Virus record (IMG/VR): IMGVR_UViG_2585427787_000014 | Direction: 5' to 3' (one strand) | Length of the DNA stretch: 40,925 nucleotides | From: a virus | Taxonomy: Duplodnaviria > Heunggongvirae > Uroviricota > Caudoviricetes | Shown: piece after piece, positions 1,143 to 40,925 of the stretch | Position numbering within the stretch: position 1 is the stretch's first letter | How the letters are laid out: each line of letters opens with the position of its first letter | The notes under the pieces: model-generated | The model's input: the letters and a program-made list of their open reading frames with translations, nothing else | The model's database searches: none | Told to the model about the DNA's origin: nothing | Program-made: the position numbers and the translations under genes

Positions 1143-1288
1143 CATTCATAGTGCAGGGTCAAATCATTCCCACTCGATTATTTGCGATACACATAACCAA
1201 TTGAGTGATAACAACTTTCCCATAACTGATTTTCACCGTACCGTTTTATATACCGTCACCGGAAATCAGTACCATGAAAAATGCCATG

Positions 1289-1774
1289 TCACCTGGTCAG
1301 CGAATCGTACTGCTTTTCACAGACTCGTCCGGCTTCGGCGGCCCGATCAGCGTACTCTGCCAGTTGTCGGTTTCGCTCGAGAGATTTGCTGAGCACGTCG
1401 GCAAGCAAAACTCCGGTGTCTGCGGCTGACGCCCCAGAGCCGACAGTGGCGTTATACTGCCTGAGCTGCTCACGGATGGCAACGAGCTGTTGCTGCAACC
1501 TGCCAGCGCGAGCGGCAGCATCAAGAGCATCATTGCGCGCCTGGTCGATAGCACGCTGTGCTTCACGTTCATTTGTCGCTTTCTCCTGTTCGTCATGCAG
1601 ACGCGCTTTCTCATCTTCGGCTTTTCGATCTGCCTTTGCCTGTGCATACCCGGCGTCGTACTGACGGTTGCCGTGTATATTCCAGGCAACAACGCCACTG
1701 ACCACCAGCGCAGCAAGCATCACGACAATAAGCAACTGTTTCCAGTATGTTTTTAATAATACCGAGATCATAAA
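1289..1774 (-). CDS. Rz-like i-spanin (inner-membrane spanin)
   Basis: Start taken at the internal Met (MISVLLKTYWKQLLIVVMLAALVV...) of track ORF 1289-1903. N-terminal TM helix then a charged coiled-coil region; lies immediately downstream of the endolysin with a 7-nt overlap. Confidence 0.6.
   Translation of the reverse strand, partial: FMISVLLKTYWKQLLIVVMLAALVVSGVVAWNIHGNRQYDAGYAQAKADRKAEDEKARLHDEQEKATNEREAQRAIDQARNDALDAAARAGRLQQQLVAIREQLRQYNATVGSGASAADTGVLLADVLSKSLERNRQLAEYADRAAEAGRVCEKQYDSLTR
1297..1572 (-). CDS. Rz1-like o-spanin lipoprotein embedded in Rz in another frame
   Basis: Inside track ORF 1297-1716: signal peptide plus lipobox (MNVKHSVLSTRRAMMLLMLPLALAGC) followed by a Ser/Pro-rich short mature part. 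Start is either Met at 1572 or 1533. Confidence 0.4.
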   Translation of the reverse strand: MNVKHSVLSTRRAMMLLMLPLALAGCSNSSLPSVSSSGSITPLSALGRQPQTPEFCLPTCSANLSSETDNWQSTLIGPPKPDESVKSSTIR

Positions 1775-2394
1775 AGCACCTTGCTGGCAGTGATGTACCG
1801 CGCGCGCCGGTCGTCGATGCCGTTCTGACCGCCATTGATGATCTGCGTGACGCGCACCAGGTCGCCGGTGTACTTCATGCAGCCTTTGGTGGCGAAGAAC
1901 CATGCAGCGCTGCGGGCCGCGTATTCGTCCTGCGCCAGCAGCTCAGGCTGAGAAACCAGATCAACCTTCAGGCCGTTACCGCAGTCACGATAGTTATCCA
2001 GGAATGTTATCCCGATAAGGCCACGCGCCCGGTATTTCCATCCATCACCCGGAGCGTTGTTACCGTAGCGCTTGCTGTACACCAGGTTGGCGATTGCGCG
2101 CTGGCGCTCCAGTGGCAATGCCTTCTCATAGGTCTTCCTGCCAAGCGCGCTGGCCTGGTCAGGAGTAATGCGCCCGGCGCGGATAAAGCCAGCCAGACCG
2201 GCAATGCTGTAGTTGAAATTCTCAATCAGCCTGGTGAATCCGGTGCTTTCATGCCCTGCCTGGGCAATGAACATTGCCTGATGCTGTGGATCAATAATGC
2301 CGAACTCTTTCATCGCTGCGGTGATATGCGGATACCAGCGCACAGCCAGTTGCTCAGTTATACCGGCAGCGCGCCGGAACTGGTTAATGTCCAT
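1768..2394 (-). CDS. endolysin, glycoside hydrolase family 19 (chitinase-like lysozyme)
   Basis: 208-aa ORF; translation resembles GH19-type phage endolysins as I recall them (FIAQAGHESTGF..., GRGLIGITFLDNY...); sits between the holin-like genes and Rz. Confidence 0.75.
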   Translation of the reverse strand: MDINQFRRAAGITEQLAVRWYPHITAAMKEFGIIDPQHQAMFIAQAGHESTGFTRLIENFNYSIAGLAGFIRAGRITPDQASALGRKTYEKALPLERQRAIANLVYSKRYGNNAPGDGWKYRARGLIGITFLDNYRDCGNGLKVDLVSQPELLAQDEYAARSAAWFFATKGCMKYTGDLVRVTQIINGGQNGIDDRRARYITASKVLL

Positions 2395-2692
2395 GTTGAG
2401 ACCTCGATATTTTGAATATCTGCACGACGTTACCGCGCGTCTTCAGAACGGCGGCAAGCATGACAGCATTGATGATGACCTCCGATAAATCGGCGGACAT
2501 TGGTGTGTGATACCAGATTGCGTATGCAGCGCGGACAGGAATGCTGGCGGCGGCAACAATGAGAAAGTAAGCGATCCACCCTCCCCATCTGCGATGTTGA
2601 GACCCATTACGCCTGAATGTGCCGACGCGGATTGCTATACCTGAACAGATAACCGCATTGGCAATAAGCAAAAGCAACTCATGAGTTGTCAT
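2384..2692 (-). CDS. lysis-cassette membrane protein (second holin/antiholin-like component)
   Basis: 102-aa ORF with about three hydrophobic helices; overlaps the holin-like gene upstream and the endolysin downstream. Confidence 0.45.
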   Translation of the reverse strand: MTTHELLLLIANAVICSGIAIRVGTFRRNGSQHRRWGGWIAYFLIVAAASIPVRAAYAIWYHTPMSADLSEVIINAVMLAAVLKTRGNVVQIFKISRSQHGH

Positions 2693-3092
2693 CGTCTTTT
2701 CTCCCCGGGATTAACTCGCGTGGATTATCGGAACGGTGATAGAGCCAGATGCCAATACGGACTGCGACTATTGCTGACACGAAAGCGCCAGCGGAGTACG
2801 CAACCCCTTTCTCAAACATATCTGTGGTGATGCCAGGGAAAGAGGATGCAAAGCCGATGAGGAATGTTGCTGTGGGTTTGTAGAAGAGAAGGCCACAGAG
2901 GAAACTGAGCATCGACAAGAGAACCCGGCGCCGTATCGGATACTCAACTGCTGAGGTAACAAAAATTACCGCACCAGCCAGAGCACCTAGCGCCACCTCT
3001 GGCGGAACTCCTGCGATTACCGCAGCAAGCGACCCCATGCTAAGCCACTGATTTAAAGACTCACTGGTTAGCCCGGCTGACATAATGACCAC
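2679..3092 (-). CDS. holin-like membrane protein
   Basis: 137-aa ORF with multiple TM helices and a charged C-terminal tail (RSDNPRELIPGRKDDDNS); first gene of the lysis cassette. Confidence 0.5.
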   Translation of the reverse strand: MVIMSAGLTSESLNQWLSMGSLAAVIAGVPPEVALGALAGAVIFVTSAVEYPIRRRVLLSMLSFLCGLLFYKPTATFLIGFASSFPGITTDMFEKGVAYSAGAFVSAIVAVRIGIWLYHRSDNPRELIPGRKDDDNS

Positions 3093-3210: not shown

Positions 3211-4665
3211 TTATTGCAAATATCCTTTTTTGTTTTTTAGCATTCTCGTTAACGCCTCTGTCCATGAAGCCATGATACTGATTTGCCCCTCAACTGTAGG
3301 ATGGATGTTGTCACCATACCATCCTATGTTTGCTCCAAAGTTTCTGCGCATATCAGCAAATTCATAGCCATTTTGTATGCAGAACTTTTTCAGCGCATGA
3401 GTATATTTTGCATGCGCGGCATAGTTAGCAGTAGTTACACCGTGAATACCACTATGCTCCTTAGTAGTAAAAATTGGGAAAATGCCAAAAACAGGGATAG
3501 CACCTGCGGCAACTATTTTATTTGCTATAGTCTGAACGTTTGTTACATACTGAGCTACAGCGGTACCACCTTGCTGGTCGTTAGTTCCTATCATACAAAG
3601 TACAACATCATGAGGTGAGTAATCTGTTGTTGAGCCTTCACCGGAAGACCAATAGGATGAACTGGTACCACTTACAGCATAATTTGTAATTGATACCTTA
3701 CCTACGTTGTCTGAGTTCTGTATAAAAGATGGTAATAGTTTTGTTATATCGTTGCTGCACCATGCGCCATAGCTAATTGAGTCTCCTATTACCCCAATAT
3801 TCAACGGACGCTTAACTCTCACTTTATAGTTTGACGTTTTAAGACAATCCAAAAAAATAACACCTTTGGCATCGCCACTACCCAACAAAATGAATCCTGC
3901 GTTAGCTACGGCTCCATTGAATCTATAAACTGGAAAGCCGTTAATAATAAATGTCATTACTGAATCATTAACAACAAATCCAAGATTAACCTGCTGATTA
4001 CTAACCCATCCATACGCACCACCGTTAGGGAGGGTGTAGGACTCATTTATTGTTTGAGTTCCATAAAAATTAAATCCTTTAACCATTAAGGTTGCACTTG
4101 ACACTGTTACATATGCTAATATAACCTCGTTTGAGGTTTTTATAAATACACCACATGATTCAGACATTCCACTTGTAAACACATTGATCTCATAAAGAGA
4201 ACCATTCTCAAGTGATGTTGGGTATAGAACCTGTGGGTTCGCTGAGAAATCAGATGACCACGTCACAGTGCTTGATGTTACAATTCCTGTTCCTGAGATG
4301 CTAATGTCTCCTGTTGAAACATTATAGACTTTCTGATTCCAGCTCGTCAGATCCACAACAGAAGATAACTCATTTAGTGACATGTTAACTAAACCAGGAG
4401 CAACATTATACAACTCCTTCAAGTCAACGAATGTATTTGCAGGTTTAACTAAAGTTGTTCCACTTACAGGATTTTTAATTCTTAAATTTGTTAATAATAA
4501 CAAATCTTTTGTATTTGGATTTTCATCAATATTAAATGTTATACCATCATCAGCATGAATTTTCAATCCTGATAAATCAGGCCGACCGCCAGAAAAAAAA
4601 AACGGTACCAGCCCCGTCAAAGTATAATGTTTCTCCAATTTCTGAAAGATAACTACGGGCAGCAT
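3211..4665 (-). CDS. tailspike C-terminal part with SGNH/GDSL esterase domain (downstream frame of a split tailspike)
   Basis: 484-aa ORF. C-terminal SGNH hydrolase blocks: GDS (IGVIGDSISYG), GxND (CMIGTNDQQGG), DxxH (GDNIHPT). Overlaps upstream ORF 4577-5788 across a T10 run. AT-rich. Confidence 0.65.
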   Translation of the reverse strand: MLPVVIFQKLEKHYTLTGLVPFFFSGGRPDLSGLKIHADDGITFNIDENPNTKDLLLLTNLRIKNPVSGTTLVKPANTFVDLKELYNVAPGLVNMSLNELSSVVDLTSWNQKVYNVSTGDISISGTGIVTSSTVTWSSDFSANPQVLYPTSLENGSLYEINVFTSGMSESCGVFIKTSNEVILAYVTVSSATLMVKGFNFYGTQTINESYTLPNGGAYGWVSNQQVNLGFVVNDSVMTFIINGFPVYRFNGAVANAGFILLGSGDAKGVIFLDCLKTSNYKVRVKRPLNIGVIGDSISYGAWCSNDITKLLPSFIQNSDNVGKVSITNYAVSGTSSSYWSSGEGSTTDYSPHDVVLCMIGTNDQQGGTAVAQYVTNVQTIANKIVAAGAIPVFGIFPIFTTKEHSGIHGVTTANYAAHAKYTHALKKFCIQNGYEFADMRRNFGANIGWYGDNIHPTVEGQISIMASWTEALTRMLKNKKGYLQ

Positions 4666-5788
4666 TATATTGAGTGAAAGAATCTGTTACCCCATCATAC
4701 TTAATACCCCACTGCCTCGCCCTTGTCGGATATAAGGACTCTACATACATGCCACCTGCAATAGAAAATATATGCCCTCCATCATCAGTAGCGGATCCAC
4801 TGCGGATTACTCCAATATTTCCACCTCCATCATTCTTTGAGTAATAACCAGACCATTCAACCATCATTCCATTGTACGATGAGTCAAAAACAACATGGTG
4901 GGCATTAGATAACACGCCAGACCTTAGATCTGCTACTGTAGAGAAAGTCAGTTTTACAACATTATTGTCGAGGTAATTCTCAAGCGTTCCGAAGTACTTA
5001 TCGCCAATAAATGACGCCCCGTTACTGGACGCAAGATCAGACCTTAAGCTGGCATCGCCAACACTAAGCCACTTACCACTTCCTATCCCCCCTGTGCTCT
5101 CAGGTGTAGAGTCGGTGGGGACTACTTTTGGTAGTGTTCCATCCCACCTGAACCATTCGCCTGAGCTTTCCTGGAGAAGAACGTCGTTAGGATAGTTGAT
5201 GGTATTACCCAGCTCAAAAGACCTCTTCGTGTTATAGCCATACAGTCCATTCTTCAATGTATCAATGATAGTTGCCAATAGGTTACTCAAATCACGATAA
5301 AGATCATCAATATATTTTTTTGTAGCTGCATCTTGTGGCATAGACGGATCACGGAGGTTTCTTATATAGAATCCCAGCGCATCATAGAAACTGGCAATGC
5401 TGCTTGGTCTTTTTAGTGCCAATCTGTTATCACTAAAAGCCTGCTGAATTAGCATCGTCAGTTTATCAAAAGCATCTTCATGTACTTCTGCGAAGAACTT
5501 ACCCTGATTTCTGAGATCTGTTTCCTGGGTAACTGGCAACTCTCTGGATATCGAAATCTGATAACCATTAGCAAGAGGAGCAGACAAAACAACATTTCCT
5601 CCAGTGTATCCACCAGCGCCAGTTACCGTATAACCGGTATCCAGAACCAATTCTGTTACGTTCCCGTTCAGGTCAGACACCTGAACAACCAGGTCGGATT
5701 TTTTGAAAATACGGAAGGTATACGGAAATGATGTCGTAACGCCGTTACCTGTGTATTCGTTGTGGTCAACTTCGGTTGAGACCGTCAT
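4577..5788 (-). CDS. tailspike N-terminal (virion-attachment) part (upstream frame)
   Basis: 403-aa ORF ending five codons after the T10 run. N-terminus (MTVSTEVDHNEYTGNGVTTSFPYTFRIFKK...) matches my recollection of conserved tailspike head-binding domains of epsilon15/phiV10-like podoviruses. Confidence 0.65.
   Translation of the reverse strand: MTVSTEVDHNEYTGNGVTTSFPYTFRIFKKSDLVVQVSDLNGNVTELVLDTGYTVTGAGGYTGGNVVLSAPLANGYQISISRELPVTQETDLRNQGKFFAEVHEDAFDKLTMLIQQAFSDNRLALKRPSSIASFYDALGFYIRNLRDPSMPQDAATKKYIDDLYRDLSNLLATIIDTLKNGLYGYNTKRSFELGNTINYPNDVLLQESSGEWFRWDGTLPKVVPTDSTPESTGGIGSGKWLSVGDASLRSDLASSNGASFIGDKYFGTLENYLDNNVVKLTFSTVADLRSGVLSNAHHVVFDSSYNGMMVEWSGYYSKNDGGGNIGVIRSGSATDDGGHIFSIAGGMYVESLYPTRARQWGIKYDGVTDSFTQYNAARSYLSEIGETLYFDGAGTVFFFWRSA
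4593..4602. repeat. A10/T10 homopolymer at the junction of the two tailspike reading frames
   Basis: Ten consecutive A on the plus strand; both tailspike ORFs read through it (VFFF in the upstream frame, PFFF in the downstream frame). Confidence 0.9.
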
Positions 5789-5964: not shown

Positions 5965-5984
5965 ATTGCATGGAGAAGATTAAG

Positions 5985-6242
5985 ATGCAGCAGTATCACT
6001 ATCCACTGGAAGACGGATTTACCGAAAGGATTCACACGCCGGGAGGCGTCAGGTCACTGGTGGAAGGATCGCACTTGATGAAATTACTCCGGGATCTCGA
6101 TAAGGATGGATTTAATGTCGATGGCCCACTTGCCGAACTGACTGCACTGATTAACTACGTCACCAGCTCACAGATGTCTATGCGGGATCTGCAAACACAT
6201 CTCGACTATTGTGCCGAACAATTACGAAAACAAACCAGATAA
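5985..6242 (+). CDS. small antirepressor-like protein; standalone homologue of the C-terminal domain of the Bro-N protein at 6558-7268
   Basis: GGAG Shine-Dalgarno 9 nt before ATG 5985 (alternative ATG at 5970). About 45% identity by eye over ~80 aa to the C-terminus of the 6558-7268 product (LMKLLRDLDKDGFNVDGPLAELT...RDLQTHLDY vs LMNLLNQLQDDGHDVSGAAAELT...RDIQTHAEY). Confidence 0.6.
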   Translation: MQQYHYPLEDGFTERIHTPGGVRSLVEGSHLMKLLRDLDKDGFNVDGPLAELTALINYVTSSQMSMRDLQTHLDYCAEQLRKQTR

Positions 6243-6272
6243 GGTTTGCAATTACCAAGTGGAGTGCTTATA

Positions 6273-6289
6273 TTTACCTTTGCGGTAAA
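6273..6289. promoter_or_regulatory. 17-bp palindrome copy (TTTACC-TTTGC-GGTAAA)
   Basis: Embedded in a longer imperfect inverted repeat (GGAGTGCT...AGCACTCC) just downstream of gene 5985-6242. Confidence 0.5.
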
Positions 6290-6379
6290 TTTACATAGCA
6301 CTCCTCTTGTGCCATAGTAATCGGGCACTGGCAAAATCCAGTGCCGGGATTGGCGTCCCGAGTTACTAAGTGGCGCATA

Positions 6380-6401
6380 CCACGCCAGACGTGGTTTTTT
6401 T
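6380..6401 (+). terminator. rho-independent terminator
   Basis: Stem CCACG / CGTGG with loop CCAGA, followed by T7. Confidence 0.55.
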
Positions 6402-6557
6402 ATGCGTTAAGCACAGCTATATCCGAATTATGGTGGGCTGGGCAGGGGTCCGAAAGGACGCCGGTACCACTTAGGCCGGTACGCCAACCTTGTCCAGTTC
6501 ACCACCAGTAATTGGCGTTGCGGTGGTGATTAAAATCACTAAGTGGAGATAACCACC

Positions 6558-7268
6558 ATGGCTAATGCTCAAACTGCCATCTTCAAATTTGAATCTGTTA
6601 ACCCTATCCGTTCCATCATTATCGATGGCCAACCATGGTTTGTAGCCCAAGACGTTTGTAGTGCGCTGCGTATCCAAAACGTCACCCAAGCACTTGAAAA
6701 ACTGGATGATGATGAAAGGTCTATGTTCAACATAGGGCATGAACATCGTGCAATTTTTGACAGCCGAGTAAAAGAGATCAACATCATCTCCGAGTCAGGC
6801 CTCTACACACTGATCCTCCGCTGCCGCGACGCAGTGACACCAGGCACTATCCCATACCGCTTTCGTAAATGGGTTACAGGTGAGGTTCTTCCTCAGATCC
6901 GCCGCACCGGAAGTTACATTAAAAACTCGCTCCCGCAGGAAGAGCGCATAAAGATGGTTGCCGACCAGGTAGCCAACGCCACAGCATCAGCAGTGATGCA
7001 GGCGATGAAGATAGAGAACAAAACCTACAGTGCCCCACTGAAGCCCGGCTACCGCAGCCTGATTCATTCGCCGTCTGGTGTTCTCGGCCTGACGGAGAAC
7101 TCACTGCTGATGAATCTGCTGAACCAGTTACAGGACGACGGGCACGACGTATCGGGCGCGGCGGCGGAGCTGACCACCATGTTCTGCTACATCGTCGGTG
7201 TGAGCAAATGCCTGCGTGATATCCAGACGCACGCGGAGTACATCAACGACAAGGCAGGGTTCTTCTGA
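6558..7268 (+). CDS. Bro-N domain antirepressor-like protein
   Basis: GGAG 9 nt before ATG 6558 (track ORF begins at GTG 6543). N-terminus (AIFKFESVNPIRSIIIDGQPWFVAQDVCSALRI...) has Bro-N/antirepressor character; C-terminal ~80 aa paralogous to the 5985-6242 product. Confidence 0.6.
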   Translation: MANAQTAIFKFESVNPIRSIIIDGQPWFVAQDVCSALRIQNVTQALEKLDDDERSMFNIGHEHRAIFDSRVKEINIISESGLYTLILRCRDAVTPGTIPYRFRKWVTGEVLPQIRRTGSYIKNSLPQEERIKMVADQVANATASAVMQAMKIENKTYSAPLKPGYRSLIHSPSGVLGLTENSLLMNLLNQLQDDGHDVSGAAAELTTMFCYIVGVSKCLRDIQTHAEYINDKAGFF

Positions 7269-7339
7269 CGGGCGGCGGCACAGGGATGTGCCTTTAAATA
7301 ATTCTGTACAGATTGCAGACTGTGGGTGAATAGCGTACT

Positions 7340-7356
7340 ATTACCTCAAGGGTAAA
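7340..7356. promoter_or_regulatory. 17-bp palindrome copy (ATTACC-TCAAG-GGTAAA)
   Basis: About 60 bp upstream of small ORF 7416-7595. Confidence 0.5.
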
Positions 7357-7415
7357 CGGATTGGTTTCATTTTTATTAATCCGTGTAATGAACTTATGAG
7401 ATATGAGGTAATGTC

Positions 7416-7595
7416 ATGCGAAACGAAAAATTGCAGATGCGTAGAGCGCAAGCTGCCGCAAGACGTTCTTTCAATGGAAGCGTAGAGTGCGTAAAAGTTA
7501 CTATGACAAAAGATCACGCAAGTCGCGTATCCCGCGCTTTCTTTGATTCTCGTAACAATAAGGAAAATTATGAGTTCGTCTGCGTCGCAGAATGA
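7416..7595 (+). CDS. small basic protein (59 aa) overlapping the start of the YafO-like gene; candidate antitoxin/regulator
   Basis: Not in the ORF track (<60 aa). ATG preceded by GAGGT; translation MRNEKLQMRRAQAAARRSFNGSVECVKVTMTKDHASRVSRAFFDSRNNKENYEFVCVAE; overlaps the next gene by 26 nt in another frame. Confidence 0.3.
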   Translation: MRNEKLQMRRAQAAARRSFNGSVECVKVTMTKDHASRVSRAFFDSRNNKENYEFVCVAE

Positions 7596-8115
7596 TAAAA
7601 ATCAAATTGTCAGATATAAGGGTCGAGTATTGCATACGCAAAATTTCTCGGCCCTTTGTGCATCTGATCTTGAGCTGAAGAAAGTATCTGATGCCTTTAC
7701 CCAGTATTGGAAAACGGGATACCATCCATCTCTTGGTAAAGATGCTGCATTTGCTCGTCCGACAGAAATGCTTAAACTAAATGTCAGGCATACTCATGTC
7801 GATAACCAAGACTATATTCCAGAAGATAGTGATAAAAAACACACTGGTAAAAAATCATCTTGGGATGCATGGAAAAAAATAGCGTCTGTGCAAGTAAAAT
7901 GCATACCAACAAGTAATTGCTTTTTAGTTTATTCGGTAAATCACAATCGTGATGCGCTGGTTATGTTTTTTGTTGACGCAGATGCCCACAACATAACTGA
8001 GCAAGAAGAGTTTAAAGAGGCAGCAATCACTATCAGTTATCAATTCTTTGAGAAAACAAAAACAGAACCAATGCCTTTAGAAGAAGATCTTTTTTCTGAT
8101 AAATGGAAGGAATAA
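7570..8115 (+). CDS. YafO-family toxin-like protein (type II TA-like candidate)
   Basis: AAGGA before ATG 7570 (track start 7543). Translation resembles E. coli YafO as I recall it (SLGKDAAF...NVRHTHV...CFLVYSV). AT-rich; has its own terminator. Confidence 0.45.
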   Translation: MSSSASQNDKNQIVRYKGRVLHTQNFSALCASDLELKKVSDAFTQYWKTGYHPSLGKDAAFARPTEMLKLNVRHTHVDNQDYIPEDSDKKHTGKKSSWDAWKKIASVQVKCIPTSNCFLVYSVNHNRDALVMFFVDADAHNITEQEEFKEAAITISYQFFEKTKTEPMPLEEDLFSDKWKE

Positions 8116-8136
8116 GCCCGCGCCGCGGGCTTTTTT
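8116..8136 (+). terminator. rho-independent terminator after the YafO-like gene
   Basis: GC-rich stem GCCCGCG / CGCGGGC followed by T6. Confidence 0.65.
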
Positions 8137-8208
8137 GTGGACGAAACAAAAGTCAGTGCTACACTCATTGACGCCACATTGAGGTGGATTATAGATGGAA
8201 ATTTCACA

Positions 8209-8370
8209 ATGAAAAAAGCATTTGCTGCACTGTTCGTTTTGTTGTCTCTGGTAGCTTCAACTCAGGCCTTTGCCGGTCGTTGTCAGCACGACAGCGATAC
8301 TGCCGCTGACGGCTCCCGCTGCGGTGGGCGTTCTGCGGATTCCCGCCCGGGTGGCGGTGGCATTCGTTAA
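8209..8370 (+). CDS. small secreted peptide (signal peptide plus ~30-aa Gly/Arg/Asp-rich tail)
   Basis: Internal start of track ORF 8137-8370: MKKAFAALFVLLSLVASTQAFA then GRCQHDSDTAADGSRCGGRSADSRPGGGGIR. Confidence 0.3.
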   Translation: MKKAFAALFVLLSLVASTQAFAGRCQHDSDTAADGSRCGGRSADSRPGGGGIR

Positions 8371-8375
8371 AAACA

Positions 8376-8393
8376 AGGCCGCGAAAGCGGCCT
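8376..8393 (-). terminator. hairpin terminator between convergent genes
   Basis: Stem AGGCCGC / GCGGCCT with loop GAAA; T-rich tract follows on the minus strand, downstream of gene 8402-8698. Confidence 0.5.
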
Positions 8394-8401
8394 GTGACAT
8401 G

Positions 8402-8698: not shown

Positions 8699-8710
8699 GT
8701 AGTCACCTAT

Positions 8711-8884: not shown

Positions 8885-8893
8885 AACACTTCC

Positions 8894-32061: not shown

Positions 32062-32106
32062 TAAAAACCACATAAGACATGAAATCAATAGATTTTAGAA
32101 TATTTT

Positions 32107-32123: not shown

Positions 32124-32159
32124 TATCGAGACGTAAAAAAATGCGCTATCGCGCTGGTA

Positions 32160-33757: not shown

Positions 33758-33772
33758 GATTAATCTCCGCTA

Positions 33773-33973
33773 TCAGCTTGAATGTTGTGGGGAGGAATTA
33801 ATCATGATCTGCTTAATCTCTGCCCTGATACGACGGTTTGATTCCATGGTGCACTCAACACAGTGTCCGTTGTAAACCCAGCGTTCACTGTCATGTCCGT
33901 GCTTACATGGTTTTCCGGTGTAGTAGCGTTTAAGTCCGCGCTTTGCGGCATCAATACGTGTAATGATTTCCAT
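33773..33973 (-). CDS. small Cys/His-rich (zinc-binding-like) protein in the CII position
   Basis: Start taken at MEIITRID...; the track ORF begins at a TTG at 34036 and an ATG at 34009 is also possible. Contains CKHGHDSERWVYNGHCVEC. Confidence 0.4.
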   Translation of the reverse strand: MEIITRIDAAKRGLKRYYTGKPCKHGHDSERWVYNGHCVECTMESNRRIRAEIKQIMINSSPQHSS

Positions 33974-34052
33974 GGTAAGCCCTGTTATTAGTATTGGGAT
34001 TACGGTCATTTTGTGCTGACACAAAAAAAAGATCAACCAGATTTGGTTATTT

Positions 34053-34069
34053 ATTACCTTTGAGGTACG
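34053..34069. promoter_or_regulatory. 17-bp palindrome copy, imperfect (ATTACC-TTTGA-GGTACG)
   Basis: Between a hairpin after the Cro-like gene and the next gene. Confidence 0.4.
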
Positions 34070-34083
34070 AATAGATATGAAAA

Positions 34084-34100
34084 GACCGCCGGATGGCGGC
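34084..34100 (-). terminator. hairpin terminator after the Cro-like gene (tR1-like position)
   Basis: Stem CCGCC / GGCGG with loop GGAT; on the minus strand followed by TCTTTTCAT. Confidence 0.4.
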
Positions 34101-34123
34101 CTACAGAGGGTTGTGGCTGGATA

Positions 34124-34354
34124 TCATGAGTAGAAGAAGTATGCCAGTTCTGCTTTTGAGCGCAGCCATTGTCTTGTTTTACAGGCTTTAAAAAGCCCAT
34201 TCATCAATACCTTACCTGGCATTTTGCGCTTACCTGTTAAGTGAGTCTGGATATAGTGACTCGTCGTTCCGGCTTCCTGTGCGAAGGCTTCACGCTCGTC
34301 CGGAGTAAGTGCAAGCCAGTGCTTTTTGAAATCGAAATGTCCGTTATCGCTCAT
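34124..34354 (-). CDS. Cro-like small HTH regulator (first gene of the replication-side operon)
   Basis: 76-aa ORF with HTH-like segment (REAFAQEAGTTSHYIQTHLTGKRKMP); divergent from the CI-like gene across an operator-rich region. Confidence 0.55.
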   Translation of the reverse strand: MSDNGHFDFKKHWLALTPDEREAFAQEAGTTSHYIQTHLTGKRKMPGKVLMNGLFKACKTRQWLRSKAELAYFFYS

Positions 34355-34389
34355 AGCTATTGCCTGATATTTATTTCAGATAATAAATA

Positions 34390-34406
34390 TTCACCCATAA
34401 GGTAAC
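34390..34406. promoter_or_regulatory. operator-like palindrome, imperfect (TTCACC-CATAA-GGTAAC); site 1 of 3 in the divergent switch region
   Basis: 37 bp upstream of the Cro-like start. Confidence 0.45.
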
Positions 34407-34420
34407 AAAAATCAAGGATA

Positions 34421-34437
34421 GTTACCTATGAGGTGCA
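34421..34437. promoter_or_regulatory. operator-like palindrome, imperfect (GTTACC-TATGA-GGTGCA); site 2 of 3
   Basis: Directly abuts site 3. Confidence 0.4.
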
Positions 34438-34454
34438 TTTACCTGTTGGGTAAT
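34438..34454. promoter_or_regulatory. operator-like palindrome (TTTACC-TGTTG-GGTAAT); site 3 of 3
   Basis: 55 bp upstream of the CI-like ATG (34509); same spacer TGTTG as the copy at 35150. Confidence 0.5.
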
Positions 34455-34508
34455 ATTGCTTTAAATTGAATCATCTACTGATTCATATATGAGGCGATTT
34501 TCCAGAAA

Positions 34509-35093
34509 ATGAAAAGTATCCAGGACGTCCGCAGGCAAAATCTCAACGACTTGATCGACCGTGAATTCAATGGTGTTCAGACGCGGATGGCAGAAAAACT
34601 TGGAACTCAGGCAAATCTGGTAAACCGCTGGGCTCTTGGCAAGAAGGTTATCGGCGACCAGGTTGCGCGAAAAATTGAAGCTGCCGCCAATAAACCCCGT
34701 AACTGGCTTGATATCGATCGCTCGCTTTCTCAGGAAGGTTTTCAGCCTGTCGGCCCGAGTGATATAGGTCAGCTGGCTGCTCACAACCTGGAACGCTGGA
34801 TGAGCGAAAGCCGCGACCTTTCAACGCAGGGAAAACTACACCGCGCATCCGGCGTCGCCCAGGTGACAATCAGCCGCCTGTTAAACAATGAGGTCAGCGT
34901 TTCCATTTCCACCCTGGAGAATGTTGCATCCGCATTCGGGCGTCATGGCTATGAATTACTGATTCACCCGCACGACCCTGCGACTATCAACTATGACCGC
35001 TCGCGCTACGCATTGTTACCCGAAACCGAGAAAGCAAAGATCGAAAGTTACATTGAATTTGTCATCAACCAGAACGAAAAAAACAAACAATAA
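34509..35093 (+). CDS. CI-like repressor with two HTH (XRE-type) domains and no recognisable peptidase domain
   Basis: 194-aa ORF; HTH-like segments near residues 20-60 (GVQTRMAEKLGTQANLVNRWALGKK) and 95-150 (LHRASGVAQVTISRLLNNEV); no LexA/S24-like Ser-Lys region seen; followed by a terminator. Confidence 0.55.
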   Translation: MKSIQDVRRQNLNDLIDREFNGVQTRMAEKLGTQANLVNRWALGKKVIGDQVARKIEAAANKPRNWLDIDRSLSQEGFQPVGPSDIGQLAAHNLERWMSESRDLSTQGKLHRASGVAQVTISRLLNNEVSVSISTLENVASAFGRHGYELLIHPHDPATINYDRSRYALLPETEKAKIESYIEFVINQNEKNKQ

Positions 35094-35114
35094 AACTATA
35101 GTTTTCAGCAAGTA

Positions 35115-35136
35115 AGCCGCCTCATGGCGGCTTTTT
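35115..35136 (+). terminator. rho-independent terminator after the repressor gene
   Basis: Stem GCCGCC / GGCGGC with loop TCAT, followed by T6. Confidence 0.65.
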
Positions 35137-35149
35137 TATTGCCTGTTAG

Positions 35150-35166
35150 ATTACCTGTTGGGTAAT
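35150..35166. promoter_or_regulatory. operator-like palindrome (ATTACC-TGTTG-GGTAAT), upstream site of the leftward-type early promoter
   Basis: Perfect; about 20 bp upstream of a TTGACA hexamer (35186-35191). Confidence 0.55.
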
Positions 35167-35211
35167 TTTTTTAACTCATATCTATTGACATCAAACCAGA
35201 TACGCATAATT

Positions 35212-35228
35212 ATTACCTCAACGGTAAC
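35212..35228. promoter_or_regulatory. operator-like palindrome (ATTACC-TCAAC-GGTAAC) overlapping the putative -10 region
   Basis: Starts 20 bp after TTGACA and ends 18 bp before ATG 35247. Confidence 0.55.
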
Positions 35229-35246
35229 AGACCGAGGTAACAAGTT

Positions 35247-35399
35247 ATGCAGTGGAAAATCATCAACGGTTGGTACTGCGTTACTGCATGCGGATTCATG
35301 AGCTGGAAGTTCCGCACCTTACAGGAAGGCATTAAGTGGGCTTTCGTCAGCAAAGAAGCTCGCGATGTGGCCAACGATAACGAGATATGGGAGGGCTGA
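35247..35399 (+). CDS. small early protein (50 aa)
   Basis: Not in the track. GAGGT 8 nt upstream of ATG; MQWKIINGWYCVTACGFMSWKFRTLQEGIKWAFVSKEARDVANDNEIWEG. Confidence 0.35.
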   Translation: MQWKIINGWYCVTACGFMSWKFRTLQEGIKWAFVSKEARDVANDNEIWEG

Positions 35400-35401
35400 T
35401 A

Positions 35402-35701
35402 ATGAACGTTAATCAGCAGAAAAATCTTCAAAAAATCATGCTGGCATTCGACAAGGACTACCGCCTGTCAGAACAGCTATATGACCGACAAGTTGAACTG
35501 ATTGAGAGCATCCGACTTCATCAACTGTCCTCAACTTTCGACGTTGTAACAGGCAAAGGCGTTCGCCAGGAAGTACTGGAGGCTGCTAAAGACAGCCCTG
35601 AGTTCGAAGAACTGATGGATGCCTATCGGCGAGAGGCAATGGCAATTATCGCCCGCTGGGATCTGGCGGATCAGCTTGATGGACAGAGGGACGCGGCATG
35701 A
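35402..35701 (+). CDS. hypothetical early protein
   Basis: GGAGGG before ATG 35402 (track start 35387); helical, charged. Confidence 0.5.
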   Translation: MNVNQQKNLQKIMLAFDKDYRLSEQLYDRQVELIESIRLHQLSSTFDVVTGKGVRQEVLEAAKDSPEFEELMDAYRREAMAIIARWDLADQLDGQRDAA

Positions 35702-35904
35702 AACCAACACTCCTCTCATTGCTGCGAGGTGGAAAACACAGCATCCGAGATATGGCAAAGATTCTTGGTATCTCAAGATCGAAGGTTTCTTGGTTCATCG
35801 CTGAGCTTGAACGTCGCAAATGGGTAGAGGTAACCAGGAGCGCAATATATTTCCACGATGGAACCCGTTCCAACAAGCAGAACGAATACAAGGTTAAGTT
35901 ATGA
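35698..35904 (+). CDS. small HTH/winged-helix DNA-binding protein
   Basis: 68-aa ORF, ATGA-coupled; segment IRDMAKILGISRSKVSWFIAELERRKWV is HTH-like. Confidence 0.5.
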   Translation: MKPTLLSLLRGGKHSIRDMAKILGISRSKVSWFIAELERRKWVEVTRSAIYFHDGTRSNKQNEYKVKL

Positions 35905-36722
35905 ATACTGGCATCTATTTCGACATCAGCAATGAGGACTACCACGCCGGTGACGGCGTGAGTAAGTCGCAACTGGACATGGTTGCCAAGAATCCGGCGC
36001 TTCTTAAATGGGTTCAGGCAGCACCAGAAGACGAAGAGAAAAAGTCTGCACTAGATATGGGAACTGCATTGCACTGTCTGCTTCTTGAACCTGGAGAATT
36101 CGACAAACGCTTCATTGTTTCACCAAAGTTCGATCGTCGGACGAAACAAGGTAAAGCTGACGAAGAAGCATTTCTTCGTGATGTAGCGGATATGGGGATT
36201 GCGGTACTTGATGCCGAGCAGTGGCGGAAACTGGAGCTGATGCGTGATAGCGCAATGGCTCACCCGGCGGCACGCTGGATGCTGGAAGCACCTGGTTACT
36301 GCGAAGCATCAATGTACTGGAACGATGAAGAGACTGGTGAGTTGTGCCGCATTCGTCCAGACAAATGGCTGAACGAGCACAACGTGATCGTCGACGTGAA
36401 AAAGGTTGCAGATATGGACCGTTTTGCACGCCACATTGAGGAATTCCGCTACCACGTGCAGGACGCAATGTACCGCGAAGGCGCAATGAGGGTTACTGGT
36501 CAGCCGCATGGTTTTTTCTTTCTTGCCGTGAGCGAAAGCATTGATTGTGGTCGGTATCCGGTACGCGTGTTCGAGCTGGATGCGCAGGATGTCGATGCCG
36601 GGCACGCTCTGTTCCGCCGGGATCTGAATACCTATCACGAATGCCGCATCAATGATGAATGGGGCGGTGTGGAAATCATTAAACGCCCTGAGTGGGCACG
36701 CAAACAGGATATGTACATATGA
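35901..36722 (+). CDS. PD-(D/E)XK-type recombination exonuclease (Exo/RecE-like partner of the annealing protein)
   Basis: 273-aa ORF, ATGA-coupled to the Bet-like gene; D...D/E-x-K-like signature around IRPDKW...VIVDVKKV. Confidence 0.55.
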   Translation: MNTGIYFDISNEDYHAGDGVSKSQLDMVAKNPALLKWVQAAPEDEEKKSALDMGTALHCLLLEPGEFDKRFIVSPKFDRRTKQGKADEEAFLRDVADMGIAVLDAEQWRKLELMRDSAMAHPAARWMLEAPGYCEASMYWNDEETGELCRIRPDKWLNEHNVIVDVKKVADMDRFARHIEEFRYHVQDAMYREGAMRVTGQPHGFFFLAVSESIDCGRYPVRVFELDAQDVDAGHALFRRDLNTYHECRINDEWGGVEIIKRPEWARKQDMYI

Positions 36723-37660
36723 GCAACGACATCGCAAACATCAACGCACCAGTAGACACAGCAATCGCTGGAACTGCTGCAACTATTTTCAGCCCAGACG
36801 GCTTGAACCAACTGATGAAATTCGCCGAGGTAATGGCGAAAAGCCGCGTAACGGTACCGGCGCACCTCTCCGGGAAACCAGCTGATTGCATGGCCGTGGC
36901 AATGCAGGCTGCGCAGTGGGGAATGAACCCGTTTGCCGTTGCTCAGAAAACCCATGTTGTGAACGGCACGCTAGGTTATGAAGCCCAATTAGTAAACGCA
37001 GTTATCTCAACGATGTCGCCAACAAAAGATCGCATCAACTACGAGTGGTTCGGGCCGTGGGAACGCGTGATCGGTAAGTTTGTTGAGAAAACATCCAAAA
37101 ACGGCCATCCATATATCGCACCAGGCTGGACTCTAAAAGACGAAGAAGGCTGCGGTGTTCGCGTATGGGCAACCATGAAGGGCGAGGATCAACCTCGAGT
37201 GCTTGAGTTAATGCTGTCTCAAGCACAGGTAAGAAACTCCACACTTTGGGCCAGTGATCCGAAACAACAACTCGCATACCTTGCGACAAAACGCTGGTCT
37301 CGCTTGCACTGTCCTGACGTAATCATGGGCGTCTACACACCAGACGAATTACAGGAAACGGCACCGCGCGTTGAGCGAGACATTACTCCGCAAACGACCA
37401 CTGCTGCGGGAATGAACAGTCTGATCAACGCTAAACCAGTGAAAAAGCCTGATGAGCAAACGCGTAAAGCGGATAGCCGTGATCCAGAAGAAATGCTGAT
37501 GGCCTTTACCAGCGCAGCGATGAATTACAGCACTGTCTCCGAACTAGATAAGGCTTACAAATACATTGCACAAAAACTTTCAGATGATGACGAACTGCTG
37601 GCAAAAGCCACCGACGTTTACAGCGTTCGTCGGGAAGAATTAAACGAAACATCTATGTAA
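36719..37660 (+). CDS. single-strand annealing protein, Bet/Red-beta-like
   Basis: Start MSNDIAN overlapping the nuclease stop (ATGA). Similarity to lambda Bet as I recall it (TLWASDPKQQLAYLATKRWSRLHCPDVIMGVYTPDE vs GPWQSHPKRMLRHKAMIQCARLAFGFAGIYDKDE). Confidence 0.6.
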   Translation: MSNDIANINAPVDTAIAGTAATIFSPDGLNQLMKFAEVMAKSRVTVPAHLSGKPADCMAVAMQAAQWGMNPFAVAQKTHVVNGTLGYEAQLVNAVISTMSPTKDRINYEWFGPWERVIGKFVEKTSKNGHPYIAPGWTLKDEEGCGVRVWATMKGEDQPRVLELMLSQAQVRNSTLWASDPKQQLAYLATKRWSRLHCPDVIMGVYTPDELQETAPRVERDITPQTTTAAGMNSLINAKPVKKPDEQTRKADSRDPEEMLMAFTSAAMNYSTVSELDKAYKYIAQKLSDDDELLAKATDVYSVRREELNETSM

Positions 37661-37709
37661 CCACCACCGCGGCGCCACGCGCGCCGCACTGCAACCAAGA
37701 GAGGTATTT

Positions 37710-37958
37710 ATGAAAGGTGCATTAGGTAAGAAGGAACTCCTGGCGGTGGTGCCACTGTCATGGAGCACTATCGACCGTATGGAGCGCGCAGGGGAATTTC
37801 CTAAACGCTGGTATATCACTGACAAACGCTGCGCATGGAACCGTGACGAAGTTGAGCGTTGGCTTGATGAACGTCAGGCAGCAAGCCCGGCAGAGTTCCA
37901 GGGTAAAAAGCCTCCTGTTCAGCAACGTGTATATCGTCCTGTGAGCAACGCTGCATGA
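37710..37958 (+). CDS. AlpA-like small DNA-binding protein (possible excisionase/regulator)
   Basis: 82-aa ORF with AGAGGT Shine-Dalgarno; motif STIDRMERAGEFPKRWYITDKRCAWNRDEVERWL resembles AlpA/Xis-type HTH. Confidence 0.55.
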   Translation: MKGALGKKELLAVVPLSWSTIDRMERAGEFPKRWYITDKRCAWNRDEVERWLDERQAASPAEFQGKKPPVQQRVYRPVSNAA

Positions 37959-38067
37959 GTGCGCTGCTAAGGCACTGGAGCAAATGGTCAGGATGGTACT
38001 TATTCCTGGCCTCTGTTTCAGCATGGCTTTATCTGCTGGCATTAATTTTCAGAGAGGGTTGGATTAA

Positions 38068-38367
38068 GTGAGAAAGTTAAGCCGACTTGAAAAATATCAC
38101 ATGAACAAGGTTTCAATGCGCAGCCCTTCAAAGGTTGTTGCCGTTACTCCTGCGGCGATAGAGATCGAAAAACGCGCGATTGAAAGAGAGAAAAAAGGGC
38201 AGTTCCGCATTGCCGCCCACCTTTGGCTTCAGTGTATGGATGTTGCTTCTGGTGATGTTGAGCGTGCAAGGATCGCGGTTCGCAGGGACCAATGTATCAC
38301 AAAAGGTAACGGCCTTCGCCGTGGCGACTATAGCGGCATAGGATGTTGTGGGGTGGTTTATGACTAA
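38068..38367 (+). CDS. hypothetical small regulatory-type protein
   Basis: 99-aa ORF, GTG start with GAGGG upstream (alternative ATG at 38101). Confidence 0.4.
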   Translation: MRKLSRLEKYHMNKVSMRSPSKVVAVTPAAIEIEKRAIEREKKGQFRIAAHLWLQCMDVASGDVERARIAVRRDQCITKGNGLRRGDYSGIGCCGVVYD

Positions 38368-39010
38368 GAAATACACACTAATCTATGCAGATCCACCCTG
38401 GGTATACCGGGACAAAGCCGCAGATGGTAATCGCGGTGCCGGTTTTAAATATCCGGTTATGAGTGTGCTGGATATCTGCCGCCTTCCTGTGTGGGATTTG
38501 GCCGATGAAAACTGTCTGTTGGCCATGTGGTGGGTGCCAACACAACCACTCGAAGCGCTAAAAGTTGTTGAAGCCTGGGGATTCCGTCTGATGACCATGA
38601 AGGGCTTCACGTGGATAAAATGTGGTAGTCGACAACCAGATAAACTGGTTATGGGTATGGGACACATGACTCGCGCCAATAGTGAAGATTGCCTGTTTGC
38701 AGTAAAGGGAAAACTACATCCGCGCATTAATGCAGGGATCGTTCAGTCATTTACCGCACCGCGGCTTGAGCATTCAAGAAAACCAGATGTCGTTCGTGAA
38801 AAACTTGTGCAATTGTTAGGCGATGTTTCTCGCATTGAACTGTTCGCCCGCCAGTCGTCTCATGGCTTCGATGTTTGGGGTAATCAGTGCGAAGACCCGG
38901 CAGTGCAACTAACTCCTGGATACGCGTTGGATATTGCCAGATTAACAAATGCATTCAGCAATGCTCCGCTGTCACCAACAGACAACCAGGGGCGGGAGCG
39001 TGCAGCATGA
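38360..39010 (+). CDS. MT-A70 family DNA N6-adenine methyltransferase
   Basis: DPPW catalytic motif near the N-terminus ([12 protein letters not shown]); start MTKKYT preceded by GGGGTGG (track start 38348). Confidence 0.7.
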
Positions 39011-39666
39011 ACCTATATCAACGCATCAATGGCGCTGACTGGTGCAATATCTTCGTCGTCGGCGATCTGCATGGGTGCTACACGCTGCTGATGAACGAAC
39101 TCGACAAAGTTTCATTCGACCCGGCGCGCGATTTGCTTATTTCCGTTGGTGACCTTGTTGACCGCGGCGCTGAAAACGTCGAATGCCTGGATTTGATTAC
39201 TATGCCTTGGTTCCGAGCTGTTCGTGGCAACCATGAGCAGATGATGCTGGATGCACTGGTCAACGGCGGAAGTTTCGGACATTGGATGTCAAACGGCGGT
39301 GGATGGTGGCACCAACTTGATTCTGAGCAGGATGTGCAACTCAAATACCTTCTGCCAAAGGTTACCAACCTCCCGATGATTATCGAACTGGTTACCGGCA
39401 ATAAGAAGGTCGTCATCTGCCACGCAGACTACCCGCACAACGAATACGCATTCGATAAGCCAGTACCGGAAGAAATGGTGATATGGAATCGTGAGCGGGT
39501 TAGCGACGCGCAGGACGGTATTGTCTCGGAGATAACCGGTGCCGATTTGTTCATCTTCGGTCATACGCCAGCACATCACCCACTGGTGTATGCAAACCAA
39601 ATGTACATCGACACCGGCGCAGTGTTCTGCGGAAATCTGACGCTTACCAAAGTCCAGGAAGGATAG
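39007..39666 (+). CDS. Ser/Thr protein phosphatase (metallophosphoesterase, lambda NinI-like)
   Basis: Start MNLYQRI overlapping the methylase stop (ATGA); metallophosphatase motifs GDLHG, GDLVDRG, GNHE. Confidence 0.75.
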
Positions 39667-39668
39667 AA

Positions 39669-40925
39669 TTATTTATTACTGTCTTCCATCCACTTCTCAA
39701 ACTTCGACGGGGAGAACGGAATCAGATCCGTATGCTCCCCGTCAATCCAAGAATCAATCATATCGGCCCACTGCTGCAACATGTAGGCGCGCTGTCTGGC
39801 GTATTCCGCTTTGTTATATACGGCGCGCACACCTTTCTGCTCATGTGCCAGAGCCTTTTCAATCCAGTCTGAAGGATAACCAGCCTCATGCAACAACGTA
39901 CTGGCTGTACGGCGCATATCGTGTACGGTAAAATCCTGAATATGCTCACCATCTTCATTTATTATTTTCACCGTTCTGTCGATCAGAGAGTTCAGCGCGG
40001 CATTAGATAATGGCTTCCGGAAATTGTAACGACCAGGAACCAGATATTCACTTCCACCAGCGCACATCTGCAACCCGACCAATATATCCTGTGCCTGTTT
40101 AGGCAGGTAAATAACGTGCGCCCGGCTTCCCTTCATGCGGTCTGGAGGAATTGTCCATGTCCATTTTTTAAAATCTATTTCATCCCACGTTGCATTGGTG
40201 AATTCGCCTTTACGAACCATAGTGATAAGCACCAACTTTAAAGCCATTTTCATAGTACCCATAGCACCAATGGCATCCAGCGTGCGGAAGAACAGGCCAA
40301 TTTCTTCTGGTGTCAGTGTTCGCTCTCGTGGTTTAAATATGGCGATAGACGAAGGTTTAATGTCAGCCGCAGGATTAAACAAACCATGACCACGGTCATT
40401 GGCGTGACGGTATACGCTGCTGATGATCTCCCTGGCCTGTACTGCTGTTGCACGGCCACCGCGTTCGACAATCCGGTCACACAAATCACGAACCATCGAT
40501 GTGGTAATTTCAGTCATCATTTTGTTGCCAAGAACCGGAAGTATGTCACGGTCGATCACCGCCTGCTTCATTGCGCGGGTACTGTCAGCCAGGATGACGT
40601 GTTTCATATAACTGTCGGTATGTACCGCAAACGTCTCGGCACCACGAATCTTTTTGATACCGTCACGTTTAGCCGCAGCCGGTGACTGGCCTGCTTTAAG
40701 CAGCTTCTTTGCAGCAATCAGTTCTTCTCGCGCTTCTGCCAGGCTGATACCGTCACGCCCATACTGCCCGATTACCAGCGTTTCGCGGCGACCGTTGATA
40801 CGGTAGTCGTAGCGAAACGAGACCGTGCCTGACGTAAGAACAGCTACATACAGCCCGTCACGATCGGAGACCTTGTACAGTTTGTCCTGCGGCTTGAGGT
40901 TTTTTAATTTTGTATCGGTAAGCAC
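39669..40925 (-). CDS. int: tyrosine integrase, P4-like (N-terminal arm-binding domain); 5' end at or just beyond the window edge
   Basis: 418-aa ORF reaching the window end; N-terminus (LTDTKLKNLKPQDKLYKVSDRDGLYVAV) typical of P4-type integrases; C-terminal catalytic R...HxxR...Y pattern (HDMRRTA...Y). Confidence 0.8.
   Translation of the reverse strand: MLTDTKLKNLKPQDKLYKVSDRDGLYVAVLTSGTVSFRYDYRINGRRETLVIGQYGRDGISLAEAREELIAAKKLLKAGQSPAAAKRDGIKKIRGAETFAVHTDSYMKHVILADSTRAMKQAVIDRDILPVLGNKMMTEITTSMVRDLCDRIVERGGRATAVQAREIISSVYRHANDRGHGLFNPAADIKPSSIAIFKPRERTLTPEEIGLFFRTLDAIGAMGTMKMALKLVLITMVRKGEFTNATWDEIDFKKWTWTIPPDRMKGSRAHVIYLPKQAQDILVGLQMCAGGSEYLVPGRYNFRKPLSNAALNSLIDRTVKIINEDGEHIQDFTVHDMRRTASTLLHEAGYPSDWIEKALAHEQKGVRAVYNKAEYARQRAYMLQQWADMIDSWIDGEHTDLIPFSPSKFEKWMEDSNK

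Follow-up and report, generated by a model that had tools for sequence, protein, structure and literature searches.

Annotation of a phiV10/epsilon15-type (Uetakevirus) prophage in Escherichia coli

The stretch of DNA analysed here, IMG/VR record IMGVR_UViG_2585427787_000014 (40,925 nucleotides, hereafter the window), carries at positions 1162-40925 an element that looks complete and can be identified with high confidence as an integrated temperate podovirus prophage of the genus Uetakevirus (phiV10/epsilon15 type) in Escherichia coli. A preliminary description, made from the letters alone, had presented it as a mosaic podovirus with T7-, lambda- and P4-like modules. This picture holds for the tail and ejection genes, the P-type helicase loader and the integrase, and needs correction in the details of recombination and of the nin genes. 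Mosaic architecture of this kind has already been published for epsilon15, phiV10 and ZX5 (PMC4819975; PMC9782041) and is not a new insight. As a discovery the element has little weight, since it follows the known plan of a prophage genus common in E. coli; what is gained is that the window is now correctly annotated. Minor leads are a rare, frameshifted tailspike of esterase type, which may point to the host O-antigen, and a family of uncharacterised morons.

Relatives were sought by megablast of the window, divided into three thirds, against 50,697 phage records. In the structural block (8000-32000), 78-87% of the length aligns at 96-97% DNA identity with phiv142-3, HEMP4, PAS61, ZX5, the O157 typing phages 9 and 10 and phiV10, and in the early/integration block (32000-40925) 87-98% aligns at 97-98% identity with BP9, PAS61, phiV10 and others; taken together, the matches in these two regions have 96-98% identity and extend over 72-98%. 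The lysis/tailspike end is about 86% identical, with less than half of its length aligned. Epsilon15 matches at about 76% DNA identity, in part of the structural block only. Both phiV10 (NC_007804) and epsilon15 are assigned by NCBI to Uetakevirus. By tblastn, 46 phiV10 proteins map strictly colinearly onto the window in reverse orientation, so that the layout from terS, terL and portal through gp17, tailspike and lysis genes to int is kept, and the terminase, portal, coat, tail and internal proteins, the repressor, the replication proteins, RecE/RecT and the integrase are 93-100% identical in amino acid (aa) sequence to their phiV10 counterparts. Of the element's 39.8 kb, 31.7 kb can be aligned with phiV10 DNA, with 86-98% identity, and about 78% of the window has a match in phiv142-3, with about 96% identity. 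The ICTV, the international committee for virus taxonomy, places a phage in a genus at about 70% or more genome-wide nucleotide similarity to a member; by a rough estimate from these alignments, the similarity here would be about 75%. The whole-genome comparison that had been proposed as a check places the element squarely in the epsilon15/phiV10 group. Among 5426 complete E. coli genomes, 250 hold at least 80% of window 1-25000; about 5% of complete genomes thus have a near-identical prophage.

The left end of the window is host DNA. It contains yfgH (1-516, plus strand), encoding a glycine-zipper protein, and yfgI (532-1071, plus strand; DUF5384), both recognised by Pfam and both outside the prophage. 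This flank is 97.4% identical to the yfgH-yfgI region of E. coli S1-CAM-04-C, where a sister prophage sits between yfgI and guaA. Homology to phiV10 starts at 1162, with the attL core AATCATTCCCACTCGAT (1162-1178), a remnant of the guaA 3' end that adjoins yfgI and forms the left prophage boundary; the start at 1143 given previously was 19 bp off. Comparison of the phiV10 attP with both junctions gives a 17-bp overlap, and AATCATTCCCACTCGAT is the reverse complement of the published core attgagtgggaatgatt at 16 of 17 bases. The latter is the reported attP/attB core of phiV10, epsilon15 and ZX5, with attB at the guaA 3' end (PMC9782041); in guaA orientation the core reads ATTGAGTGGGAATGATT. Judged from these junction sequences, the element sits at the end of E. 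coli guaA, between yfgI and guaA. The phage phiV10 and its relatives phiv142-3, HEMP4, vB_EcoP_PAS61, vB_EcoP_ZX5, O157 typing phages 9/10 and TL-2011b resemble the window in gene order, att core, guaA site and possession of tRNA-Arg.

Two observations concern the host side of this boundary. A host terminator hairpin (1111-1137, just outside attL) is nearly identical, at 25 of 27 positions, to a hairpin on the int-proximal side of the phiV10 attP. A copy of the guaA/yfgI terminator appears to come with the phage itself. In E. coli S1-CAM-04-C, an IS200 element (L007 4060-4518) lies between yfgI and the prophage end; it is not in the window.

The structural genes lie on the minus strand. The genes for the large (26524-27993; 96% aa identity to phiV10 p02) and small (27990-28664; 100% to p01) terminase subunits have matches to Pfam Terminase_2 and to phrog_2 and phrog_51. 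They are followed by a small gp3-like gene (24651-24857), the portal (22966-24636; Pfam Head-tail_con PF12236, E 3.5e-186; PDB 8ck0_A portal, E 3e-175), a Bbp19-like gene (22673-22969; Pfam Phage_Bbp19), a gene in the scaffold position (21975-22670), the major capsid or coat protein (20974-21960; Pfam GP7), a Bbp16-type cement protein (20485-20922; Pfam Bbp16), a gp9-like gene (20139-20474) and a gp10-like staple (19765-20088; Pfam Gp10-like). The tail consists of an adaptor of 201 aa (19160-19765; PDB 8ck1_E 'Connector Protein', E 4e-26) and a nozzle of 821 aa (16695-19160; PDB 8ck1_A 'Tail Nozzle', E 5e-217), the counterparts of T7 gp11 and gp12, and a match to phrog_9239 'tail tubular protein' falls in this region (16695-19765). 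Next come five genes for internal virion or ejection proteins with 93-99% aa identity to phiV10 p16-p20, namely gp13-like (16231-16695; phrog_308, common with T7 gp13), gp14-like (15686-16231; Pfam T7_gp14, PF24072, E 7.6e-8, above the curated cut-off), gp15-like (13173-15686; a lysozyme-type, muralytic domain at residues 248-403), gp16-like (11374-13176) and gp17-like (8894-11368). The tailspike gene stands beyond them, across a block of genes on the opposite strand. Module order and the families of the portal, coat, staple, adaptor, nozzle and internal proteins are common to the window and epsilon15, the type member of the group, whose virion has been solved by cryo-electron microscopy. Epsilon15 differs from the window in that its tailspike is followed by genes for an O-antigen polymerase and an inhibitor, and in having a RuvC-type resolvase and a cytosine methylase; its annotation contains no lambda-P-type gene.

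The structural order had been described as colinear with that of T7-type podoviruses, and the colinearity is real, remote and already published. Over T7 gp8-gp17, both genomes have the order portal, scaffold-position gene, coat, adaptor, nozzle, small and then large internal proteins, one of them muralytic, and a fibre or spike with a common N-terminal anchor; the protein sizes in T7 and the window are 536/556, 196/201, 794/821, 138/154 and 196/181 aa. Between the window portal and T7 gp8 there are reciprocal hits to phrog_332 and phrog_449. The nozzle and adaptor were identified via PDB 8ck1, and their homology to T7 proteins is taken from profile comparisons in the literature and from a note on an HHpred result: epsilon15 gp12 strongly matches T7 gp12 when one hidden Markov model is compared with another (Hardies et al., 2016; PMC4819975), and gp11 is annotated in the RefSeq record of epsilon15 with an HHpred match to T7 tubular protein A. 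The T7 internal proteins A and B have their standard homologues, at syntenic positions, in epsilon15 gp13 and gp14, and T7 gp16 has its homologue in gp17; for T7 gp15, epsilon15 gp15 and gp16 are only positional candidates (PMC4819975). Direct comparison with T7 gave nothing of this kind. Whole-genome tblastx of T7 against the window returned no high-scoring segment pair at E<1e-4, and no T7 protein matched a window protein significantly by phmmer, blastp or tblastn, the best match being that of the portal, with E 8e-4 in a database of 42 proteins; the NCBIfam search gave no names for structural proteins. Because the pairwise comparison found nothing significant, the T7 link rests on profiles, synteny and literature. 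What stands is the gene order, with the portal, gp13, gp14 and the fibre anchor recognised by profiles and the nozzle and adaptor through a solved relative, and the capsid is not of the T7-type family.

These likenesses, that is, the T7-family portal, the gp13 and gp14 homologues, the gp17-like anchor and the T7 order from the adaptor to the internal proteins, would also be expected of a temperate phage within the T7 lineage (Autographiviridae-like) whose RNA polymerase has been lost. Such an origin is nevertheless hardly credible. The tblastx result above leaves no T7-type DNA polymerase, primase-helicase or RNA polymerase in the window, the coat belongs to different families (Pfam GP7 and phrog_212, versus phrog_267 for the T7 coat), and the terminase genes are upstream of the portal instead of after the fibre gene. 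In published trees, the terminase and capsid of epsilon15 group with those of siphoviruses, and the epsilon15 group forms a separate deep branch (PMC4819975). The earlier statement that a phage RNA polymerase is missing was borne out for the window: the best tblastn match to T7 RNA polymerase has an E of 1.6, and none of the open reading frames (ORFs) over 800 aa has a Pfam hit. The window further differs from T7 in having two extra decoration proteins without a T7 counterpart, in having three large internal proteins where T7 has two, and in its temperate lifestyle.

The Uetakevirus prophage has a replication module that resembles that of lambda in part. The protein of 261 aa encoded at 32160-32945 (minus strand) belongs to the lambda P family of helicase loaders (Pfam PF06992, E 5e-56), with 31% identity to lambda P (blastp, E 2e-33), as had been proposed. 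The initiator gene directly upstream (32942-33757, minus strand) encodes DnaT and HTH_36 domains (Pfam PF17948, PF13730), and no similarity of this protein to lambda O was detectable. Between the regions for these two domains, the repeat search and Tandem Repeats Finder located six iterons (33355-33503) of the type ATCCCAAAAACGGGAT on the gene strand, TCCC-A5C-GGGA in outline, spaced 18-24 bp apart; a pattern search gave four matches against 0.00 expected by chance. They resemble the iterons ATCCCTCAAAACGAGGGA of the lambda origin, which likewise lie inside the O gene. The iteron region is a putative and probable replication origin. A 12-bp tandem duplication (33321-33344) adjoins the iterons. 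A P-family loader directly downstream of the initiator gene and TCCC...GGGA-type iterons inside it are features common with lambda O/P/ori, whereas the HTH_36/DnaT-domain initiator and the six iterons with 18-24-bp spacing are not. At the level of sequence, lambda-like replication appears supported in organisation, though the initiator has no detectable homology to O.

One of the recombination genes had been taken for a lambda Bet homologue, an assignment that has to be withdrawn. The module comprises a PD-(D/E)XK nuclease of the RecE C-terminal type (35901-36722, plus strand; Pfam DUF3799; positions 606-873 of the NCBIfam exodeoxyribonuclease VIII profile, E 2e-91) and a RecT annealase (36692-37660, plus strand; Pfam RecT, E 1e-43). 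The match of the RecT protein to lambda Bet is marginal (E 0.0075 in a 42-sequence database), and tblastn with lambda Exo, Bet and Gam gave no hit in the window at E<0.01. By its protein families, the module is of RecE/RecT type, not lambda Red. As in the Rac prophage, a RecT-family annealase stands beside a nuclease matching the C-terminal domain of exodeoxyribonuclease VIII; unlike Rac RecE, the window nuclease has only 273 aa and consists of the catalytic domain alone. The two are separate, overlapping ORFs in different frames, as in TL-2011b, while the phiV10 annotation has them as one fusion of 586 aa.

Downstream in the leftward operon follow, all on the plus strand, an AlpA-type excisionase or regulator (37710-37958), PerC (38068-38367), an MT-A70 methylase (38348-39010) and a NinI-like Ser/Thr phosphatase (39007-39666, with 39007 as its true start). 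The last has 67% identity to lambda NinI across 217 aa (E 8e-111) and also matches lambda at the DNA level. When lambda NinB-NinI were searched, only NinI had a homologue in the window, so that the proposal of nin-type genes stands for one gene. This NinI homologue lies not after P but next to int, preceded by the MT-A70 methylase, as the last gene of the leftward operon; phiV10 has DUF1382 there. After P there is instead a DUF1064 nuclease-like gene (31698-32042, minus strand), which PHROGs groups with Holliday-junction resolvases and which is only a positional, non-homologous analogue of the nin genes. The search for lambda Q gave no hit, and the right half of lambda (27-48.5 kb, including N, Q, O, Exo, Gam and NinB-H) gave translated matches only at P and ninI.

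That narrow overlap bears on whether the element could be a lambdoid podovirus of the P22 type (Lederbergvirus), with lambda-like early genes and a short-tailed virion. Homologues of lambda P and NinI, genes of the Ea22/Ead and Eae-like types, a divergent repressor/Cro pair and iterons inside the initiator gene would all be at home in such a phage. Yet Uetakevirus phages come out on top when the structural block is searched by megablast, the portal, coat, cement and staple are in epsilon15/BPP-1 families, and the lambda right half is matched only at P and ninI; we regard a P22-type origin as exceedingly improbable.

The Uetakevirus prophage ends, at the right of the window, with a P4-family tyrosine integrase (39669-40925, minus strand; Pfam Arm-DNA-bind_3, PF13356, DUF4102, E 4e-20; Phage_int_M, PF22022; Phage_integrase, PF00589). 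Its assignment agrees with the preliminary description: identity to P4 Int is 28% over 409 aa with E 1e-39, as against E 4e-5 to lambda Int, and the same label is found in the phiV10 record and has been given to the ZX5 enzyme (PMC9782041). Residues R238, H335, R338, H361 and Y375 align with the active site of lambda Int. With the P4 integrase family it has in common the Arm-DNA-bind_3, central and catalytic domains and a small AlpA/Vis-type regulator nearby, but unlike P4 Int it targets the 3' end of the protein-coding gene guaA, not a tRNA gene.

Immunity genes are found at two places. A repressor with a helix-turn-helix domain (34509-35093, plus strand; Pfam HTH_3) and a divergent gene in the Cro position (34124-34354, minus strand) show 100% aa identity to phiV10 p40 and p41, respectively, and the repressor function of the identical protein of ZX5 has been tested (PMC9782041). 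Beside the tailspike, on the plus strand, a gp19-like ORF (5970-6242) is followed by the small RNA isrK (6325-6401; Rfam match at gathering level), a C4 antisense RNA (6426-6509; Rfam 66 bits, gathering 45) and a Bro-N antirepressor gene (6543-7268; Pfam Bro-N, E 1e-19), a homologue of which has been tested for antirepressor function in ZX5 (PMC9782041). The position of the isrK and C4 RNA genes directly upstream of the antirepressor gene is a P1-immI-like arrangement, which suggests RNA control of the antirepressor of the P1-immI type.

The tailspike gene is interrupted. It is represented by two ORFs (5788-4577 and 4665-3211, minus strand; Pfam PF18668, Tail_spike_N, and PF13472), with an SGNH/GDSL esterase at the C-terminus. 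The N-terminal anchor is T7-gp17-like, having phrog_1640 and phrog_8460 in common with T7 gp17, and a homologue carries Pfam PF03906. A run of ten T residues (T10, 4593-4602) within the gene brings a +1 frameshift that splits it into ORFs of 403 and 484 aa overlapping there; deletion of one T yields an uninterrupted ORF of 858 aa. Intact 858-aa homologues occur in E. coli in the same prophage context, and their receptor-binding parts are 90-91% identical to that of the window; at the frameshift site, where they have T7-C-T instead of T10, the frame continues as FDGAGTVFFSGGRPDL. An exact-pattern search for the site in metagenome and species-representative genome collections gave no match, and it was a later protein search that found these homologues. 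The receptor-binding part is rare, with 15 relatives among 5.8 billion proteins, and the C-terminal 484 aa gave no sequence match in PDB, no tblastn match in the 50,697 phage records and no megablast match in the 5426 complete E. coli genomes. It is unrelated to that of phiV10, and no O-antigen modification gene flanks the tailspike, in contrast to oac in phiV10 and genes 21/22 in epsilon15. Modular exchange of tailspikes is well documented in Uetakevirus prophages (PMC10408124).

Several points limit this reading of the element. Because of the frameshifted tailspike, the prophage as sequenced may make no infectious particles. The attR site is beyond the window, which stops at the integrase start codon (40925), so the completeness of the right end falls outside this sequence. 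That the element forms podovirus particles, that it can be induced, and that the RNAs and the gp49-like protein act in regulation is inferred, and the scaffold-position gene had no match in Pfam, NCBIfam or PDB and is labelled 'protease' by PHROGs. It is conceivable, though we hold it rather unlikely, that the element is a defective (cryptic) remnant of a Uetakevirus prophage in which the split of the 858-aa tailspike at the T10 run, a site through which the intact homologues read, blocks adsorption-competent virions. Against this, RNA polymerase slippage on long T runs is established and could restore some full-length tailspike, and sequencing commonly goes wrong by one base in homopolymers of 10 bases. 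All other phiV10 homologues align at full length, and the integrase active site is intact. Bolder proposals are that the T10 tract is a real slippage switch, which would yield mostly a 403-aa product with the anchor alone and, through slippage in transcription or replication, some full-length spike able to deacetylate O-antigen, and, separately, that the 296-aa moron described below is an undescribed superinfection-exclusion or defence protein; we consider them a long shot.

From the protein families of the prophage and from what has been tested in sister phages, the following life cycle can be proposed. The integrase and the AlpA-type excisionase would recombine attP with the last guaA codons. 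Immunity would be set by the CI-like repressor and the divergent Cro-position gene, and the Bro-N antirepressor, preceded by the isrK and C4 RNAs, may form a second, P1-immI-like control layer. Upon induction, the initiator would bind the six iterons in its own gene, the lambda-P-type protein would load the host DnaB, and recombination would be carried out by the RecE/RecT-type proteins. The late operon would be transcribed by the host RNA polymerase with a gp49-type regulator. The small and large terminase subunits would then pack the DNA into a capsid made of the T7-family portal, the epsilon15-gp7-type coat and two decoration proteins, and the adaptor, the nozzle and the five internal proteins, which follow the order of T7 gp11-gp16, would make up the short tail and ejection apparatus. 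An O-antigen-directed tailspike would be anchored by its T7-gp17-like N-terminus, and the cell would be lysed by holin, GH19 endolysin and spanins. The lysis cassette lies on the minus strand next to the left end and consists of Rz/Rz1 (1289-1771), a GH19-type endolysin (1768-2394), a holin (2384-2692) and a membrane or holin-like protein (2679-3083). Its products are only 77-94% identical to phiV10 p27-p30a, and their Pfam families were taken from the same genes in the sister prophage.

Accessory genes had been placed at three insertion sites, beside the tailspike, between terminase and portal and at the operon end. All three are confirmed, with opposite-strand or non-phiV10 genes at 5970-8698, at 25285-25361 (tRNA-Arg) and 25610-26500, and at 39007-39666, where the leftward early operon ends. 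The number was an undercount: at least seven segments of the prophage, defined as the gaps left inside it by blastn against phiV10, differ from that phage. They contain the tailspike receptor-binding part (3223-5304), a YafO-like ORF and small ORFs (7280-8890), a 296-aa ORF (25549-26593), a small ORF (28682-28890), the ea-type genes (29229-31478), another small ORF (35706-35900) and the NinI-like gene (39013-39685). In gene content, the YafO-like block replaces p21/p22 of phiV10, the 296-aa moron replaces p03, and the ea-type genes differ. This mosaicism is the ordinary module exchange of the genus Uetakevirus.

The YafO-like ORF (7543-8115, plus strand) has a Pfam YafO_toxin match (E 7.6e-5) below the curated cut-off, and a membrane-associated ORF of 77 aa (8137-8370, plus strand) lies next to it. 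An ORF of 59 aa precedes the YafO-like ORF (7416-8115 together, plus strand), as in gp45/gp44 of TL-2011b, and the two may be a prophage-borne toxin-antitoxin pair. The moron of 296 aa (25610-26500, plus strand, opposite to its neighbours) belongs to phrog_13369, has a lower GC content and is not present in phiV10. It has 176 homologues, all 'hypothetical', across Enterobacteriaceae, and neither Pfam nor PADLOC nor a named PHROG family covers it; among the ten accessory proteins given to PADLOC, no defence family turned up, only a coiled-coil noise hit to JetC. Its AlphaFold model has hydrophobic N-terminal helices, one helix of 160 residues and a small C-terminal domain, and the protein is predicted from it to be a membrane-anchored coiled-coil.

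The 'ea'-type and regulator genes at 28661-32042 were assigned by Pfam and PHROGs. Besides the DUF1064 gene they include, all on the minus strand, an ORF of 77 aa (28661-28894), the gp49-like regulator (28891-29238), DUF551 (29344-29880), an ORF of 265 aa (29891-30688), Ead/Ea22 (30648-31055) and an Eae-like gene (31052-31636). Between portal and terminase, ARAGORN detected a tRNA-Arg with the anticodon TCT (25285-25361, plus strand; Rfam tRNA, 73 bits). It overlaps an ORF on the opposite strand (25294-25539, minus strand) that corresponds to the phiV10 hypothetical protein p04, and the p04 coding sequence of phiV10 is probably a mis-annotation.

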